In this document: positions 13,150-23,103 of the stretch, piece by piece | Layout of the letters: the number at the start of each line of letters is the position of its first letter | How positions within the stretch are numbered: the stretch's first letter is position 1 | Assembly (NCBI GenBank): GCA_050014195.1 | Contig: JBEKDT010000014.1 | Coordinates: 1 to 64,000 of the forward strand | Length of the DNA: 64,000 nucleotides | Reading direction: 5' to 3' | Source: Desulfomonilia bacterium | Lineage (GTDB): Bacteria > Desulfobacterota > Desulfomonilia > UBA1062 | Notes under the pieces: generated by a model | What the model was told of the DNA's origin: nothing | Seen by the model: the letters and a program-made list of their open reading frames with translations, nothing else | Databases searched by the model: none | Program-made: the position numbers and the translations under genes

Positions 13150-16100
13150 ATGCTATCACCAGGACAAACCAACCAAATCTTTCCGGCAATACTTCCTGCA
13201 CTTACCACGTTGTTGTTGTGCACCTTGATCCTTTTCCCCATAGGAAAGCAAGGCAGGAATGTCTGGAAATTCAGACTGCTGGGGATCATTTGTTGCCTTG
13301 GATGGCTTTACAGCCTTGGGTATATCGGTACACTCTTCAGCGGATCCGCCATAGTCCTCTCTGCAGTGCGCAGGTTTCTCTTTCCCCTTTACTTTTTCTT
13401 CCTCCCGCTTTGCGTTCATCTTTGCCGAAAGATATCACGTGCCCGATCCAGAAAATACCTTTTGGGGACTTTTTATGGCATAACTACACTCCTTGTTGCT
13501 ACTTCCTGGTGGGTGCAGGCACTGCCGGAATTGATTTTCCCCCTGTTAGCCGGTGCAGGGGTCATTTATTGCGCCCTTATCCTGTATAGTGCAATGGGTG
13601 AGAAGAGGATGACCAGCCAGGCTCTCGATGTATGGTTTGTTTTCTCAGGCATTACAGGATTATTGATCCTGGCATCCATGCAAACGTACTCCTTTCTGAG
13701 CAGTGCGTCTGTTTCGTTTGCGTTCATCCCCCTGGTGTTCCTTGCGCTTGGAGTAGTTATAAATGAGGAAGCCCAGGAAGAACCAGTCATCAAAAGGGGA
13801 GAGCTTATCAAATGTATCATGGCGGCATTCATCTTGTTGCCGATTTCCTATGACATTATTGTTCTTGTCCTGAACCTGGGGAGCATAAATCTCGGAATGT
13901 ATCTGTCGAACCTCTTATCCTTCGGTTTGGCGAAGATTATCTCCATAACGATCTGTGCAAGCCTCGCCTTGTTTCTCTTCACCAGGAAGACGGACCAGAC
14001 CAACAACACCCTGATTGCACTGAACTGCATGCTCCTGGCCATACTCAATCTCAGAGATGTGGTAATCGCCCTTCTCCCTGAGTTCCAAACCCTGCAGATC
14101 TTCCTTCTGCATGATATCTTTATCGCAGCATCAATAGGCTCATATGTCCACCTCGTATACCGTATTGCGCAGAAACCACGTAGTATCGCTATTCCTTTGG
14201 GGTATGGCATCAGTGGTATACTCATATCGTTGCTGATCTTCAAGGCTGGTCTTACCGGTATCCAGGGGGAAGGCATCATGCATGCGCCGCTTGTGTGGGT
14301 GCTGCTTGCCATATTCTGTTATTGCAGTATTGTCCTGTTCAAGGCATCAAGGAAAGAGGCTGATCCTCAGAGAAAAGAAGGATTGAGGATTTTCTTCATC
14401 GGCTCCGGGCTTGCCATTCTCATACAGGCCTTTAACTTCCTCTCCAGCTTGGGCATCGACCCCGTACAGGTCGATACCCTCCTTGTCATCCCTGCCGCTT
14501 TGATCGTCTATGGACTCACCTATAAAGATCTCCTGAACATGAGTATGTCCTCAAAGAGGCAGATGCTCACAACAGGCCTCAAGGCCGTCCTTGCTATTGC
14601 TTATATAGCCATCAGCCCGGTCTTTTTATGGATATTACACGAATATGGTGCACTCTATGTCATCAACAGGATCATACCCTATGGCATACCCCCTCTTTTA
14701 TCCTTTCTCTGTGCAGCGGTTCTCTCATTATTTGTTTTAGGTCTTGAACAGAATCGTCTCGAGGCGATTCTCTTCAGCCTTATCAGCTTCTGTTATGCCC
14801 TTTTAAATCTTGATATCACCCTGGTGGCCATTGTACCCGACATCAACCTTGCATTGAAGATTTCCCGTCTCGATCACTTCTTTCTTTGTCTTATCATGTT
14901 CGGGGTCAATCTCCATCTCAGCTATCTCGTGATCGGAAAGAAGACCAAGTGGTGGGTAGTCTATGCGGCATACATTATCGGGATCATCATGGCGCCACTT
15001 TCCCAGACCCGCTACTACTTCCAGGGCATGTATACCTATTACTGGGGATACTTTGCTCACAAGGCCATACTTTTCGATATTATGAGCGGACTATGGCTTG
15101 CCGGTCTTCTCTATGGAATCTATCTGCTCAATAAGGAACGCAAGACGACAAAGGCCTTGCAGAAGACCAAGGTCAGTCGCGTCCTTAGAGCCTTTCAAAT
15201 CCTGGCCGCATTGAGCATGTCCAATATCCCGGCCATCAACGGGGTCGAGTTCTATCCACTCGGGACCTTTGCATTCATAGGACTCATCTACCTTGCCTAT
15301 GGCCTTTTCGTCTTCAATCTAAGACATGCCCTCCAGCAGGTGAGGGCCGCCGTTTTCTGGATCGGCATCGTTATCCTCCTTGGAGCGATCGGGCTCTTTC
15401 CTCAGAAAATACTGCACGTCGAGAATTATACCACCCTGATGCTTGTGAGCGTACTCGGGGTGGTCATCCTCTTTCGTCCGGCGCGCAAGGGGTGGAATGC
15501 GGTGGTGAATCTGTTTATCATGAATGAGAGGGACGAACTGAATGACGAATATGCGCGCTTTACAGAAAACCTCTCCCATATTCATCATCTCAAGGACATC
15601 CATCAGGCCCTCAATGAGTGGTCGTTCCGTGTGTTCTCAACTACATTCTGCGCACTTCTTGTCCGCAGGGGAGATAATGAATCCCTCAAGGGCTGGAATA
15701 CATGGAACACAAATTTTTCATCAGGGCTCTTCAGCAAGGATGATGACATACCCTGCGGTGAACACCTCCTTGACATAGAACCTGATCATGCAATTTCAAG
15801 GATCGCAGGCATGAGCAATGGCATTGCATCAGGCGATATGCTTGCGAAGATGATATCCGAGTTACCGTCTAAGACAAAGCGTGAATCCGAGCTGTTCGAA
15901 TATGCGGAGATCCTTCTCCCTGTCAGTCTGGGTGATCATAGCCTTGCTGTGCTCTTGCTTGGAAGGAAAAACAACGGATCAGGCTACAGGGCCTCCGAGA
16001 TCGATCTGATCCAGTCAATGGTCCTCGTGCTGGGACCCTATATTGAAAATGCATTGCTCCTGGAATCTCTTGAAGGCCAGGTCAACAAACGAACGAGTGA

Positions 16101-17166
16101 TCTCAATAAAGCCCTTATCGAGGCCATGCTCAAGGAAAAGGAGATCATAGCCCGGAATCAGGTGATCGAGACGCAGAATCAGATCATGGCGGTCCTGCTC
16201 GAAACGAGTACAAGGATACACCATATTGAAGGGTTGGATGATCTCTTCAGCTTTACCCTGAATCAGCTGAAGATCCTGTTCCCTGATCTATGCGGAGGTA
16301 TTATCATTGAAGGAGCCAAGCGGAACATCCTTGAAGCCAGTGCATTTGTGGGCCTGAGTGATGCGGAGCAGAAGGTCATCCTGGAACACAGGCTTAGGAT
16401 CACCGAACCTGGAATCGATACTATTTTACGCGCGGAGATGGAAAAGGAAGAGATTGTGGGAAATAGTCCGGACACACCGTTCTGGAAGGTATTTCCTTTG
16501 CAGGGAAGGAGTGAGAAGGCCGTTGGGTATATGATCCTTAAAGGAAAAGACCTTGACGGGCCAACAGGAGAGACGGTCATCCTTTTCATTGCCCAGATCT
16601 CTGCGGTTGTGCAGAACAGGCTCCTGCTCACCCACTTGGAGAAGATGGCAAGCACGGATAGTCTCACCGGCGTCTACAACCGGTCTTTCCTGGACCGTGA
16701 GCTGGGAAAGGCCGTCAAGCATGCCAAGCGTATCAAGAATATGTGGTTCTCGCTTATGATTATTGATGTGAACGGGCTCAAGCAGATCAATGATACCTAC
16801 GGACACGGGGTGGGAGATGAGGCCATCATCAAGGTAGCGGGCATGCTCAAGTCGGCATGTAGGGACACGGACATCGTCTCGCGCATCGGAGGAGATGAGT
16901 TCGCCGTACTGATGCCCTCGACAAACCTGCCTCAGGCTGAGATCCTCCATACCAGGATCAGGGATGGGGAAACGGGCCTAAGGGTGCTTCTTACACCTTC
17001 TGAAGGCAAACATATCAATATCCCCATCCGTATCAGCATCGGGCTTGCAAGCTCAGATGAATCAGATCCTGATAACGTCATGAAGATGGCCGATGATCGC
17101 ATGTACCTTGACAAACAGCATTATTATGCAATGCGGGCCAAAGAACCAAGTTTTGCGCGTCAATGA
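13150..17166 (+). CDS. Polytopic membrane diguanylate cyclase (tandem 7TM-like sensor repeats, GAF-like regions, GGDEF)
   Basis: About 780 aa hydrophobic N-terminus, TDSLTGVYNR, D.NGLKQIND.YGH..GD, intact GGDEF with RxxD I-site (RDTDIVSRIGGDEF). Confidence 0.88.
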   Translation: MLSPGQTNQIFPAILPALTTLLLCTLILFPIGKQGRNVWKFRLLGIICCLGWLYSLGYIGTLFSGSAIVLSAVRRFLFPLYFFFLPLCVHLCRKISRARSRKYLLGTFYGITTLLVATSWWVQALPELIFPLLAGAGVIYCALILYSAMGEKRMTSQALDVWFVFSGITGLLILASMQTYSFLSSASVSFAFIPLVFLALGVVINEEAQEEPVIKRGELIKCIMAAFILLPISYDIIVLVLNLGSINLGMYLSNLLSFGLAKIISITICASLALFLFTRKTDQTNNTLIALNCMLLAILNLRDVVIALLPEFQTLQIFLLHDIFIAASIGSYVHLVYRIAQKPRSIAIPLGYGISGILISLLIFKAGLTGIQGEGIMHAPLVWVLLAIFCYCSIVLFKASRKEADPQRKEGLRIFFIGSGLAILIQAFNFLSSLGIDPVQVDTLLVIPAALIVYGLTYKDLLNMSMSSKRQMLTTGLKAVLAIAYIAISPVFLWILHEYGALYVINRIIPYGIPPLLSFLCAAVLSLFVLGLEQNRLEAILFSLISFCYALLNLDITLVAIVPDINLALKISRLDHFFLCLIMFGVNLHLSYLVIGKKTKWWVVYAAYIIGIIMAPLSQTRYYFQGMYTYYWGYFAHKAILFDIMSGLWLAGLLYGIYLLNKERKTTKALQKTKVSRVLRAFQILAALSMSNIPAINGVEFYPLGTFAFIGLIYLAYGLFVFNLRHALQQVRAAVFWIGIVILLGAIGLFPQKILHVENYTTLMLVSVLGVVILFRPARKGWNAVVNLFIMNERDELNDEYARFTENLSHIHHLKDIHQALNEWSFRVFSTTFCALLVRRGDNESLKGWNTWNTNFSSGLFSKDDDIPCGEHLLDIEPDHAISRIAGMSNGIASGDMLAKMISELPSKTKRESELFEYAEILLPVSLGDHSLAVLLLGRKNNGSGYRASEIDLIQSMVLVLGPYIENALLLESLEGQVNKRTSDLNKALIEAMLKEKEIIARNQVIETQNQIMAVLLETSTRIHHIEGLDDLFSFTLNQLKILFPDLCGGIIIEGAKRNILEASAFVGLSDAEQKVILEHRLRITEPGIDTILRAEMEKEEIVGNSPDTPFWKVFPLQGRSEKAVGYMILKGKDLDGPTGETVILFIAQISAVVQNRLLLTHLEKMASTDSLTGVYNRSFLDRELGKAVKHAKRIKNMWFSLMIIDVNGLKQINDTYGHGVGDEAIIKVAGMLKSACRDTDIVSRIGGDEFAVLMPSTNLPQAEILHTRIRDGETGLRVLLTPSEGKHINIPIRISIGLASSDESDPDNVMKMADDRMYLDKQHYYAMRAKEPSFARQ

Positions 17167-20079: not shown

Positions 20080-20418
20080 ATCCTAAAAAGCGACCCCAAG
20101 AGAGACGCTGAACAATCTTGCCCACGCAAAGGCTGCATTAAGTAGTAACTTACCCCTAATATTTCACATAAATACCAAAAAATATCAATCATTTTGTTGA
20201 CATGGGTGAGATGCAATGCTATGAGCACGTCCAAGACGTTCTTGTATTTTGCAGGGCCTTTGTTTCACGAAAATTGCTTTTAGTTCTGGGCCCCGATTTG
20301 GAAAAACACCATGAATCGCAAGTTTTTTGTTTTGACGCGTCCTGGTCGGCGAGAGAGAGCGCTTTGATCCGGGAAGCAGCGGTGTTGGTGTACAAATTTC
20401 TTTAGAGGGGGGACGCTG

Positions 20419-21495
20419 ATGAGAATCATTGCCGTTATAAATCAGAAGGGTGGGTGTGGCAAGACTACTACCAGCATAAACCTCGGGGCATGCCTGGCTA
20501 AGTTGAAGAAAAGGGTTCTTGTGGTGGATCTTGACCCTCAGGCCCATGCCACATTGGGTTTCGGAATCAACCCAGGTGAATATCAGAAGAGCATCTATGA
20601 TCTTCTAATTGGGAAAGAGAAGGGAACGGTCTTCACGAGTGATGTCATCATGAACCTGGCCCAGAACCTCGACCTGATCCCTTCGGATGTCATGCTCAGT
20701 GCCGCCGAGCCCATCCTGCTTCAGAGAGATCACCGCGAATATTCTCTGGCTGATATCCTTAAACCCTTGTCCGAAAAGTATGATTTCATCATAATCGATT
20801 GTCCCCCGAATATCGGAATCCTCACGTTCAATGCCTTGTATGCATGCACCGAGGCGATCATCCCCATGGAAAGCGGCCTGTTTGCCCTCCATGGTCTGGC
20901 AAAGCTCCTGGAGACCATCCATCTGGTAAATATGAAGAGGGCTATCAGTATCTCTGCATATGCCCTTGCCACCATGTACGACCGCAGGACGAAAATCGCC
21001 TATGAGTCCTTGGAAGAGCTCAGGAAGCATATGCATGGGCACGTGTACAAGACGGTCATCAATGTTAATGTGAAACTGAAGGAGGCTGCGGGATACGGAG
21101 AGTCCATTATCATGTACGCCAGGAACTCCCCCGGCGCCAAAGACTACCAGAGCCTTGCAAAAGAGATTATGTCCATCAAGAAGCTCAAGAAGGTGAGGAT
21201 AGAAGAGGATGAGAAAATCCTCAAACCAATGGTCACGAAAGACGGCGTGTTGTTCACATACTATTCTCCGAAGGCCTCCCGGGTATATGTAGTGGCTGAT
21301 TTCAACGACTGGAATATGGATGGGCTCCCCATGGTCAATATTGAAGGTACCGGCATGTGGCAGAGGATTGTTCCCCTCAAGAAGGGCACATATGAATATA
21401 AATTCTATGTCGACGGCCACTGGGTGAGCGATCCCAATAATCCGGACAAGTTGAAAAACGAGTTCGGTGAGAACTCCCTTATTGAGATCGACTGA
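20419..21495 (+). CDS. ParA/Soj-family ATPase fused to C-terminal CBM48/AMPK-beta-type glycogen-binding domain
   Basis: Deviant Walker A NQKGGCGKTT, DLDPQ, IIIDCPP, TMYDRRT; last ~85 aa: FTYYSPKA..V.V.ADFNDW...M...GMW...VPL..G.YEYKFYVDG.W.SDP.NP......G.NS. Confidence 0.9.
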   Translation: MRIIAVINQKGGCGKTTTSINLGACLAKLKKRVLVVDLDPQAHATLGFGINPGEYQKSIYDLLIGKEKGTVFTSDVIMNLAQNLDLIPSDVMLSAAEPILLQRDHREYSLADILKPLSEKYDFIIIDCPPNIGILTFNALYACTEAIIPMESGLFALHGLAKLLETIHLVNMKRAISISAYALATMYDRRTKIAYESLEELRKHMHGHVYKTVINVNVKLKEAAGYGESIIMYARNSPGAKDYQSLAKEIMSIKKLKKVRIEEDEKILKPMVTKDGVLFTYYSPKASRVYVVADFNDWNMDGLPMVNIEGTGMWQRIVPLKKGTYEYKFYVDGHWVSDPNNPDKLKNEFGENSLIEID

Positions 21496-21497
21496 CC

Positions 21498-22337
21498 ATG
21501 AAGGAGCGGCCCAAGCTGGGGAGAGGGCTACCGGATGTATCAAAGTTTTTTCTGAGTGATGCCTCACACCAAGAACAGAATGCAGGGGAAGTTACATGCT
21601 CGACTTTTGCACCGGAATCCCTCTATATCTGTTCCCCCGGATCGCCGCTGATCCAATCCATAGTCACGGCGAATCTCGCCCTGGAGCTTGCAAGGCACGG
21701 CCACCGTGTACGTATACAAGATTTTTCCACATCCAATGAGACTCGCCTGTCGACCCTGATGGGTTCAATACTTTTCCGTGATGATAGAGACCCGGGCAAG
21801 GCCTTTGTGAGGCTTTACGGGCTGCCGGAGATCATGATAGAAGACGGCTTTTCGGGAGACCTTGGGAAAGAAAAGGAATCTCCTCATGAGGCTGAGCCTT
21901 ATAGGGATGATACAGGCAGTTTGACCCTGGTGAATGCACCCGTTTTACTTGACTTCATCCAGGGAAGGGCTCCATCCGATGAATACATCATCCTCACCAT
22001 GACCGATGAGAAGTCTCTGCTTAAGTGTTATGCCTATATCAAGGTCATTCATGCGCACGGTGAATCAAGCAGGGTTCACGTGGTCTTTGACGATGCGGTC
22101 AATGGAATAAACTCTGATACCGTTTTCAGGAAGTTTGCAGGATTTATCAATGAGCGCCTCGGGTTCGAAGTAGATTATTTCGGCAGCCTTCTTCATGATG
22201 AGCACCTTGAGCGCTCTATCTCCGAAGAAAGGCCGCTCGTGCTCTTTGACGGCATCTCCATTACAAAAGATGCACTCATCAGGATCTGTTCCCTCTTATT
22301 GGAAGGCTACAAAGAAGGCAGGTTAACAGAGCCATGA
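21498..22337 (+). CDS. MinD/FlhG-like protein with degenerate P-loop and N-terminal LGRGL peptide
   Basis: ANLALELARHGHRV, S...CYAYIK, YFG.L.HD..L..SI..ERP resemble FlhG/FleN; Walker A position reads SPGSPLIQS; N-terminus KLGRGL. Confidence 0.7.
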   Translation: MKERPKLGRGLPDVSKFFLSDASHQEQNAGEVTCSTFAPESLYICSPGSPLIQSIVTANLALELARHGHRVRIQDFSTSNETRLSTLMGSILFRDDRDPGKAFVRLYGLPEIMIEDGFSGDLGKEKESPHEAEPYRDDTGSLTLVNAPVLLDFIQGRAPSDEYIILTMTDEKSLLKCYAYIKVIHAHGESSRVHVVFDDAVNGINSDTVFRKFAGFINERLGFEVDYFGSLLHDEHLERSISEERPLVLFDGISITKDALIRICSLLLEGYKEGRLTEP

Positions 22338-22903
22338 TGCGTCTGCTGAAACCTGTTGATATAACCGACCCGGCCCGGGTCATCAGGTTATGCGCTCAGT
22401 GGATCAAGGAAGGACTGGGCTTGAAAATCGTAGAGTACCGAATCGGGAACACCTTTACCGGGAGCATTGATATCCTGGCCACAGACTCAAGCAAGATCTA
22501 TCTGGTCACCATTAATACCGATAGGCTCAGTGATGCCCTGCTCGGTGCTCTGAGGGGCTACGGATGGTATATTGAGAACCTGGGTTTCCTCACAAGGATC
22601 TACCAGCCAAGCGAGATCGACTTCTCGCTCCCGCCGGTTCTTATGATCCTCTCCGCATCGTTTCCGCCTGAGATTACTTCCATCCTCCGGCATGGACTGA
22701 AGGCGGATGTGAGGCTGTTCAGATATCTCATCCTTGGTTCCGAAGACGATCCTGACCTTTATGTGGAGGAACTTGGCGGCACCCAGATTGCTGTCGATGC
22801 AGCCCCTTTTGACCCGGCAGCCCTCAAACAGGAGCTCGGGATCGAAGAGGCGGGCCTCACGGATGAGGAGATCAAGGAATTCCTGACAGCCATGAGGACA
22901 TGA
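22334..22903 (+). CDS. Hypothetical protein, inactivated NucS/PD-(D/E)xK-like fold with acidic C-terminal peptide
   Basis: GSIDILATD...LVTIN resembles NucS 'G.iDiLa.D...vviElK'; ATGA overlap with upstream gene. Confidence 0.55.
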   Translation: MMRLLKPVDITDPARVIRLCAQWIKEGLGLKIVEYRIGNTFTGSIDILATDSSKIYLVTINTDRLSDALLGALRGYGWYIENLGFLTRIYQPSEIDFSLPPVLMILSASFPPEITSILRHGLKADVRLFRYLILGSEDDPDLYVEELGGTQIAVDAAPFDPAALKQELGIEEAGLTDEEIKEFLTAMRT

Positions 22904-22992: not shown

Positions 22993-23052
22993 TGTAGGAG
23001 CGGCTTTAGCCGCGACATTCAAAAACGGATCGCGCCTGAAGGCGCTCCTACA
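22993..23052. repeat. GTAG-type REP doublet (REPIN-like)
   Basis: tgtaggagcggctttagccgcga...tcgcgcctgaaggcgctcctaca; partial third copy near 23068; related doublet at 43940. Confidence 0.8.
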
Positions 23053-23103
23053 TTTCGATAGTAATGTTGTAGGAGCGGTCTTTATCAGTGGACAGGCACG
23101 GCC

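Follow-up and report, generated by a model that had tools for sequence, protein, structure and literature searches.

The stretch of DNA analysed here (the window) covers positions 1 to 64,000 of contig JBEKDT010000014.1 from a Desulfomonilia bacterium, and contains at 20419-22903 three consecutive genes, g1, g2 and g3. The first encodes a ParA/Soj-type ATPase with a carboxy-terminal carbohydrate-binding module (CBM) of the CBM48 type; the second, a pseudo-ATPase headed by a ParB-like peptide; and the third, a putative inactivated nuclease-fold protein. The stop codon of g1 and the start codon of g2 are separated by a gap of two nucleotides (TGA-cc-ATG), and g2 overlaps g3 by four (ATGA), so that the coordinates and junctions given in a preliminary description of this DNA stand exactly. 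Our analysis favours a housekeeping, glycogen-linked role for these genes over a defence system. The features of the locus are as follows:

20405-20412, forward strand: Shine-Dalgarno-like GAGGGGGG, read directly, 6 nucleotides 5' of the g1 ATG
20419-21495, forward strand: g1, an open reading frame (ORF) of 358 amino acids (aa) for a ParA/Soj-type ATPase with a C-terminal CBM48
20419-21183, forward strand: ATPase domain of g1, residues 1-255, with catalytic residues complete
21184-21234, forward strand: linker of g1, residues 256-272, basic and weakly conserved
21235-21492, forward strand: CBM48/AMPK-beta-like module of g1, residues 273-358, by Pfam and by alignment with AMPK-beta
21498-22337, forward strand: g2, a 279 aa ORF for an N-terminal peptide, a variable linker and a MinD/FlhG-fold pseudo-ATPase
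21498-21557, forward strand: ParB-like N-terminal peptide of g2, residues 1-20, core LGRGL..VS.FFLS
21618-22325, forward strand: degenerate P-loop NTPase domain of g2, residues 41-276, with predicted local distance difference test scores (pLDDT) mostly >85
22334-22903, forward strand: g3, a 189 aa ORF for a putative inactivated PD-(D/E)xK (restriction-endonuclease-like) protein whose helical C-terminal tail is acidic
22802-22900, forward strand: C-terminal motif of g3, ELGIE.AGL...E....F, from conservation in the g3 alignment

The g1 translation contains every motif quoted for it in the preliminary description (KGGCGKTT, within NQKGGCGKTT; DLDPQ; DCPP; TMYDRRT; DFNDW; GMW; and YEYKFYVDGHW..DP.NP), and the ParA and CBM48 assignments made there are borne out by Pfam matches above the family cut-offs. 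AAA_31 matches residues 1-173 (E 1.5e-55, 188 bits against a cut-off of 27), CbiA scores 73 bits (cut-off 25.4), and AAA_31, CbiA and ParA-type models span residues 1-250, while the C-terminal module is matched by AMPK1_CBM over residues 283-347 (E 7.2e-11, 42.6 bits, cut-off 26.8) and by CBM_48 over residues 274-335 (E 1.3e-10, 41.9 bits, cut-off 22.4). The protein falls below every equivalog cut-off in NCBIfam, with ParA_partition scoring 104.6 where 180 is required. The nearest solved chains to the ATPase domain are 8ray, a ParA-ATP structure (E 6e-53), and Thermus Soj (E 4e-44). The residues of the deviant Walker A motif (K10, G11, G12, G14, K15, T16 and T17) are invariant in 15 close orthologues; K10 and K15, together with D39 (the A' motif, DLDPQ) and D127 (Walker B, IIIDCPP), are also invariant in 19 distant orthologues. 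In addition, Arg190 in the DRRT stretch, which aligns with the DGRT stretch of Soj, is kept in 15/15 close and 17/19 distant orthologues; Hester and Lutkenhaus reportedly found in 2007 that the Soj stretch binds DNA. That g1 encodes an active Soj-like ATPase is well supported by these residues, and its ATP-bound dimer would bind DNA non-specifically while carrying two CBM48 modules that are predicted to bind alpha-glucans.

The linker between the two domains is basic, as previously described, with a computed isoelectric point (pI) of 9.7 for the 20 residues 253-272, which include the last three of the ATPase domain. Sequence identity drops to 0.38-0.12 in the linker, while both domains hold 0.75-0.43. 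The C-terminal module aligns with the CBM chains of AMPK beta1 and beta2 (E 1.8e-8 to 3.5e-8), and W298, K328 and W335 of g1 match the FNNW, YKF and DGQW positions of the AMPK-beta CBM, whose carbohydrate-contact residues we take to be two Trp, a Lys and an Asn.

The conservation of this module was followed in two sets, both picked by similarity to g1: 112 fused homologues, obtained from the best 120 matches by keeping proteins of 340-400 aa in which the CBM is covered (eight were dropped), and the 19 distant orthologues, which come from other families and phyla and exclude L100, where the gene is frameshifted. W298 and W335 are kept in 112/112 fused homologues, as are N352 and S353, and W314 is kept in 111/112; position 328 is Lys in 97 and Arg in 15. 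All three Trp residues are also present in 19/19 distant orthologues, 18 of which have Lys or Arg at position 328. The divergence of the CBM closely follows that of the ATPase, with identities (ATPase/CBM) of 0.75/0.75, 0.65/0.62, 0.52/0.49 and 0.49/0.43 among the 112 homologues, and of 0.37-0.46 versus 0.31-0.45 for the two domains in the distant set. Since the CBM tracks the ATPase and its Trp residues are invariant, the fused module appears to be under steady purifying selection on its sugar-binding platform.

Two members of the ParA-CBM family depart from the usual arrangement. In L100:2285-3359, from a genome of another family, the gene is split across two frames near residue 318, by either a frameshift or a sequencing error, and the Sedimentisphaerales orthologue at L139:8001-9362 has an insertion of ~115 residues between the ATPase and the CBM.

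The g2 protein has no match to any Pfam or NCBIfam family, and Pfam detects neither a ParB/Srx N-terminal domain nor a helix-turn-helix (HTH) domain in it. Its structural model, built from a 15-row alignment (pLDDT 77), has the MinD/FlhG/FleN fold according to Foldseek, with 4rz3_A as the best match (E 1.5e-11, the matches ranging to 1e-9; template modeling score about 0.6). The position of Walker A is occupied by S-P-G-S-P-L-I-Q-S, which contains no Lys, and the Walker B Asp is replaced by an invariant Asn, N146. A profile search with g2 retrieved 2530 representatives at E <= 0.001, and eight of ten sampled lower hits are true ParA/CbiA/AAA_31 proteins. A direct comparison of the g2 and g1 alignments with hhalign was set aside, the match being just 28 columns long, in the correct register, with E 0.03.

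At its N-terminus g2 has a basic-aliphatic peptide, which occurs in 15/15 orthologues with R9 invariant and G8, G10, L11 and S15 conserved in at least 90%. This N-terminus is nearly the same as that of the genome's own ParB-domain gene on contig C3, and the genome contains three separate ParB_N-domain genes elsewhere. Among 7787 ORFs of at least 100 aa, a loose form of the motif lies near 26 starts, and its longer form is found only in the C3 ParB and in g2. The N-terminal motif of ParB reportedly suffices for binding to ParA and, in the presence of DNA, for stimulation of the ParA ATPase, according to passages of one study (PMC12462528). The g2 peptide thus offers a defined handle on the system, in the form of a candidate 20-residue activator with a conserved Arg. 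It was missed by the preliminary description.

A scan of species genomes with the peptide pattern alone yielded 51 confirmed loci in at least 10 named phyla, the record titles including Thermodesulfobacteriota, Latescibacterota, Zixibacteria, Omnitrophota, Nitrospirota, Schekmanbacteria, Binatia, Eisenbacteria, Gemmatimonadales, Vicinamibacterales, Rokubacteria/Methylomirabilota and Pseudomonadota. In 50/51 loci the gene directly upstream of the peptide gene encodes a ParA, the exception being cut by a contig end, and this ParA carries CBM48 in 48/51. The peptide heads a g2-type domain in 39 of the 51 loci (three of them truncated), and a separate g3-type gene follows in 6 of these 39. In the other 12, a g3-type domain follows the peptide directly, in fused proteins of 202-266 aa (11 recognized by hidden Markov model and one by tblastn). 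Because the peptide is joined to a g3-type domain in other phyla, a Rosetta-stone pattern, g3 probably belongs to the same partner unit as g2. Judged by these loci, it is the peptide that accompanies ParA-CBM proteins, and a partner role for g2 and g3 is supported by the comparative genomics. A predicted complex of two g1 ATPase domains with ATP and g2 scored 0.02 (mark 0.32), a result that carries no weight either way on binding.

The partner that occupies the same position in the f46 lineage gave no match to the g2 alignment by hhalign (probability 0.6%), and its homology to g2 therefore lacks support. One such partner, in L097:4441-5919, is 492 aa long and has a C-terminal extension of ~170 residues that is absent from its four relatives.

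Like g2, g3 matches no family in Pfam or NCBIfam. Its model (pLDDT 84) is aligned by VIA-align with the FokI cleavage domain (Z 9.7), the XisH-like 2okf (9.7), PaqCI (9.3) and NucS (9.0), and its structural neighbours in the Atlas carry NucS_C; Foldseek found no match to this model in the PDB at E <= 0.001, and the fold call rests on VIA-align and the Atlas. Asp46 is invariant, and the next strand reads T-x-N/D-T in place of (D/E)xK. From this alignment, rather than from a residue-level superposition, g3 is inferred to be a catalytically inactive protein of the restriction endonuclease (REase) fold. The protein is acidic (pI 4.6), and each of E167, L168, G169, I170, E171, A173, G174, L175 and F183 is either invariant or conserved to 90% or more across 14 orthologues. 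The earlier view that both partners are catalytically dead is supported by the loss of the P-loop lysines from g2 and of the ExK from g3.

The order g1-g2-g3 is identical in 14/14 related loci fetched, in which g1 is the slowest-evolving of the three (55-96% identity, compared with 26-93% for g2 and 34-94% for g3) and diverges in parallel with the DUF362 and ferredoxin genes that flank the trio. In 12/14 of these loci rubrerythrin is encoded upstream, and the housekeeping neighbourhood persists across the genus and family. Species genomes were also scanned with the g3 alignment, the C-terminal motif being one of two retrieval patterns; among the 26 loci found, 14 of which lie on contigs already seen, g2 is directly upstream of g3 in 26/26, and g1 is present in all 24 in which the contig continues through its position. 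The conservation of the trio, proposed as a check in the preliminary description, thus holds in both sets.

The ParA-CBM fusion is found in 17/24 other genomes of the same family and in 0/16 of the sister family, and is single-copy per genome in the relatives searched. An apparent absence of g1 from a genome of the same genus (G001) was traced to an assembly gap, the contig breaking off at the very point where the trio should start. Within a phylum sample of 301 genomes, 14 have the fusion, ten of them outside the family of the window's genome, and among the records of a further scan, those titled Myxococcota, Omnitrophota, Planctomycetia, Gemmatimonadales, Sedimentisphaerales and Thiogranum contain it as well. 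Some of the distant loci contain additional genes. A MerR-type gene, with 50-59% identity from phylum to phylum, is found before the ATPase gene in L093, L095-L099, L130 and L140, and in 7/51 peptide loci; the window's genome has no orthologue of it at E <= 1e-5. In three loci from Omnitrophota and Planctomycetia, a ~190 aa protein with a single hydrophobic segment is encoded ahead of the ParA-CBM gene (L132:334-930, L136:6532-7104 and L137:1677-2258), and what comes after the ParA-CBM gene in L132 and L136 encodes a ~105 aa membrane protein rather than a g2-type partner. One further locus, L124:1528-3362, looks decayed or misassembled, with matches to residues 1-55 and 193-358 of g1, 1-210 of g2 and 80-189 of g3 between intact flanking genes.

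The architecture of the trio is already known in silico. Passages of a preprint by Li, Burroughs and Aravind (bioRxiv 10.64898/2026.10.19.760177, 22 Oct 2026) describe a 'CBM-containing' ConB5 system, in which a ParA is fused to AMPK1_CBM and which is sporadic across phyla, and a second variant that adds a rapidly evolving inactive ParA and an inactive REase. The g1-g2-g3 trio is this second variant, as far as those passages define it: the ParA with a C-terminal AMPK1_CBM, the adjacent fast-evolving inactive second ParA and the adjacent inactive REase-fold protein are all found here. Also, the three loci with an upstream single-segment protein (L132, L136 and L137) match a variant with an upstream single-pass membrane protein in the same text. 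The preprint, which the preliminary description had overlooked, removes the novelty claimed for the architecture; since it has been described, the present locus contributes evidence on function rather than a discovery. In the passages concerned, the system is predicted to be an immune sensor, and the CBM's fast divergence is cited for this. Our results differ on both points, as the fused CBM, which is distinct from the further CBM that is membrane-linked in the other variant, is here as conserved as the ATPase, and stable synteny with housekeeping genes is seen where those passages propose an immune role. The ParB-like partner peptide, its fusion to the REase-type domain and the MerR gene are found here and do not appear in the passages of the preprint available to us.

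The genome from which the window comes encodes a GT5 glycogen synthase, three phosphorylase-family frames and a GH13 enzyme; one of the phosphorylase-family frames (G000:C3:47236-48729) contains an in-frame TAG, possibly marking a pseudogene or an error. Outside the window it also encodes three stand-alone proteins of the CBM48/AMPK1_CBM type, paralogues of 102-113 aa whose N-termini are Lys-rich (G000:C4:191706-192014, C6:13079-13405 and C21:61325-61666), the C4 copy lying just downstream of a 691-aa GH13 gene (C4:192157-194232). Genes for such stand-alone CBM48 proteins adjoin the system itself in L092, L094 and 7/51 peptide loci, and L094 also holds an alpha-amylase-family gene. The pentapeptide MSIKK of the g1 linker recurs at the N-termini of stand-alone CBM48 proteins, which is suggestive of the point of fusion, although five residues in a weakly conserved linker may be shared by chance. 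The co-occurrence of the system with glycogen genes was proposed as a check in the preliminary description; glycogen synthase is present in 16/18 carriers among 41 relatives, the two carriers without a match being genomes 88% and 78% complete. It is equally common in non-carriers (22/23), however, and the co-occurrence is therefore uninformative.

These observations can be joined in a mechanism in which the system spreads glycogen particles through the cell. The ATP-bound g1 dimer would bind nucleoid DNA and, through its two CBM48 modules, glycogen at the same time. The g2 protein would be the ATPase-activating partner, displaying a ParB-type peptide on a dead MinD-like scaffold, with the dead nuclease-fold g3 as part of the same unit, and the g2/g3 unit would trigger hydrolysis and release through the peptide. 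Repeated binding to and release from the nucleoid could then tether and distribute glycogen, so that the carbon store would be spread in the cell and inherited by both daughters. Such a mechanism would be akin to those of McdAB and ParABS, except that the ATPase itself would hold the cargo. We consider this cycling of g1-ATP between nucleoid and glycogen to be a serious candidate that still falls short of being probable; that it represents the first storage-polysaccharide positioning system, a Soj-derived ATPase working on glycogen with a split ParB analogue in many uncultured phyla, is a more doubtful proposition, to be held tentatively. Literature searches on ParA and glycogen returned no characterised system, and the words 'glycogen' and 'granule' do not occur in a 2024 review of ParA/MinD ATPases or in a 2023 paper on multiple cargoes, so that the statement to this effect in the preliminary description holds within the literature searched.

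As in the ParABS systems that partition chromosomes and plasmids (Soj/Spo0J), the ATPase is nearest to chromosomal ParA/Soj and the partner starts with a ParB-like, putatively ParA-binding motif; unlike ParABS, g2 and g3 lack a ParB/Srx or HTH domain, there are no parS-like repeats, and g1 has the extra CBM48. The module belongs to the same family as the CBM of the AMPK beta-subunit, that of SEX4 and the N-terminal CBM48 of GlgB, and its aromatic platform is kept in g1, but in those proteins it is attached to kinases, phosphatases or glucan enzymes rather than to a P-loop positioning ATPase. FlhG, FleN and MinD are the best structural matches of g2, which differs from them in lacking the Walker A lysines and the Walker B Asp and in having the ParB-like N-terminal peptide, in place of the C-terminal membrane helix of MinD. 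The McdA/McdB system, which positions carboxysomes, and PomXYZ, which positions the division site, likewise pair an orphan ATPase of the ParA type with one or two activating partners, in the parts of the literature on them used here; these partners evolve fast and work through a peptide at the N-terminus. Their partner binds the cargo, however, whereas in the trio it is the ATPase that carries the candidate cargo-binding module, alongside two dead partners, one of MinD fold and one of nuclease fold.

Several observations weigh against granule positioning. In the known positioning systems it is the partner, not the ATPase, that marks the cargo, and Pfam finds no glycan-binding domain in g2 or g3, which leaves the localisation of the activator unaccounted for. 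Bacterial glycogen is usually present as many small particles, for which active partition is perhaps not needed. The glycogen synthase counts give no help, and a tblastn search of 11 loci from other phyla found no glycogen synthase, phosphorylase or GH13 gene within ~8 kb of the system. The conserved MerR-type gene before the ATPase fits a regulatory reading better. At two loci, L224:2602-3357 (titled Nitrospirae) and L236:1978-2736 (Binatia), the peptide partner occurs with an upstream MerR gene and a ParA that has no room for a CBM48; these may represent an ancestral or a reduced form. Finally, the fusion is patchily spread and g2 evolves fast, both of which the passages of the preprint take as typical of conflict systems.

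The alternative that survives best is that g1 is a sensor or switch that reports glycogen status. As in AMPK beta, CBM48 would report the state of the glycogen store; bound glycogen would sequester or release the ParA dimer, and the dimer, with g2 and g3 or, in other lineages, with the MerR-type protein, would modulate a DNA-linked process such as transcription, replication initiation or division; by analogy, Soj acts on DnaA and FleN on FleQ. The loci with a MerR-family gene before the ATPase point in this direction, as does L094, in which the peptide-bearing partner itself matches HTH_17/MerR weakly (E 3.6e-4). Structurally, g2 is nearest to FlhG and FleN, which regulate a transcription factor, the nearest solved relatives of the CBM by sequence are the AMPK-beta sensors, and the window, like several relatives, has just upstream a gene for a kinase of the phosphoenolpyruvate (PEP)-synthase-regulator type. 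The genome of the window, however, lacks the MerR orthologue, the acidic character of g3 does not suggest DNA binding, and no target gene or operator-like repeat is found upstream. We rank sensing of glycogen behind granule positioning and ahead of immunity, and regard it as somewhat unlikely.

The immune reading, as set out in passages of the preprint (10.64898/2026.10.19.760177), makes the system an anti-phage or anti-plasmid sensor-effector: the CBM would sense a carbohydrate signal of infection, such as glycosylated virion parts, fragments of cell wall or capsule, or the loss of storage polysaccharide, the ParA would multimerise on nucleic acid and block the invader, and the inactive REase may sense DNA. 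The argument made there from sporadic distribution, a CBM said to diverge quickly and a second ParA that evolves fast is confirmed here in two of its parts, namely the patchy distribution (14/301 phylum genomes) and the rate of g2 (26-93% against 55-96% for g1). Dead nuclease folds are also common in defence, and the structural neighbours of g3 include HamA, Can2, NucC and McrBC. The third part is not confirmed, since in the sets measured here the fused CBM does not evolve fast and keeps an invariant aromatic platform. The trio has no effector domain, its synteny with housekeeping genes is stable across the genus and beyond, the system occurs once per genome in the relatives searched, and the partner peptide is of the housekeeping ParB type. 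PADLOC has no match for g2 or g3 and matches g1 only in the P-loop stretch (5.8e-5). For this clade, the rate of the CBM, the genomic context, the PADLOC result and the absent effector weigh against immunity, which we judge to be unlikely.

It is less likely still, and indeed improbable, that glycogen serves as an anchor or matrix for some other cargo, with CBM48 parking the ATPase on glycogen in the part played by nucleoid or membrane for other ParA/MinD ATPases while g2 and g3 link a protein complex or DNA element to it: this option, raised in the preliminary description, would suit the position of the glycan-binding module on the ATPase rather than on the partner, the two extra folded domains of g2 and g3 and the resemblance of the acidic conserved C-terminal motif of g3 to a docking peptide, but the conserved Soj-type Arg speaks for continued binding to the nucleoid, the trio has no conserved neighbour that could encode such a cargo, and we know of no precedent for glycogen as the matrix of a ParA-type ATPase.

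Granule positioning ranks first among these readings, and the interpretation offered in the preliminary description is in part supported and plausible; nothing found here refutes it, because the trio is conserved, carriers have glycogen synthase, and the putative carbohydrate-binding residues of CBM48 are kept. ParA/MinD ATPases are the main known means by which bacteria place large objects, including DNA, carboxysomes, chemoreceptor arrays, flagella and the divisome, and a glycogen-binding ParA, if positioning is its function, would add a carbohydrate store to this list of cargoes. In that case the printed immune reading would be wrong; if instead the preprint is right in the passages that concern this system, the same protein would be a lectin-gated ParA acting in immunity. 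The two readings predict opposite outcomes.

The neighbours of the trio in the window encode an OmpA protein, rubrerythrin, the PEP-synthase-regulator-type kinase/pyrophosphorylase, a solute-binding protein, DUF362, a poly-ferredoxin, a GGDEF protein and an NlpC/P60 protein; these eight are housekeeping genes, none of them mobile or defence-related, as judged without a systematic defence-island analysis. In agreement with the preliminary description, no parB, glucan enzyme or centromere-like (parS-like) repeat adjoins the trio in the window. Upstream of g1, a search for a centromere-like repeat or operator gave only short two-copy matches, and promoter-like sites occur at the level of chance (4 found, 3.7 expected). 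A listing of sequencing runs contains 24 DNA runs from peat and wetland metagenomes and none of RNA, and is silent on expression.

Two further features of the window lie outside the trio. The convergent intergenic region 3' of g3 (22993-23078) contains a 23-nucleotide inverted repeat with 87% complementarity (22993-23015 / 30-52), and the 11-mer TGTAGGAGCGG is repeated at 23068-23078; this region may be a bidirectional terminator or a repeat element. At 13150-17166 an ORF encodes a 1338 aa protein that is predicted to span the membrane many times and has a C-terminal GGDEF diguanylate cyclase domain.

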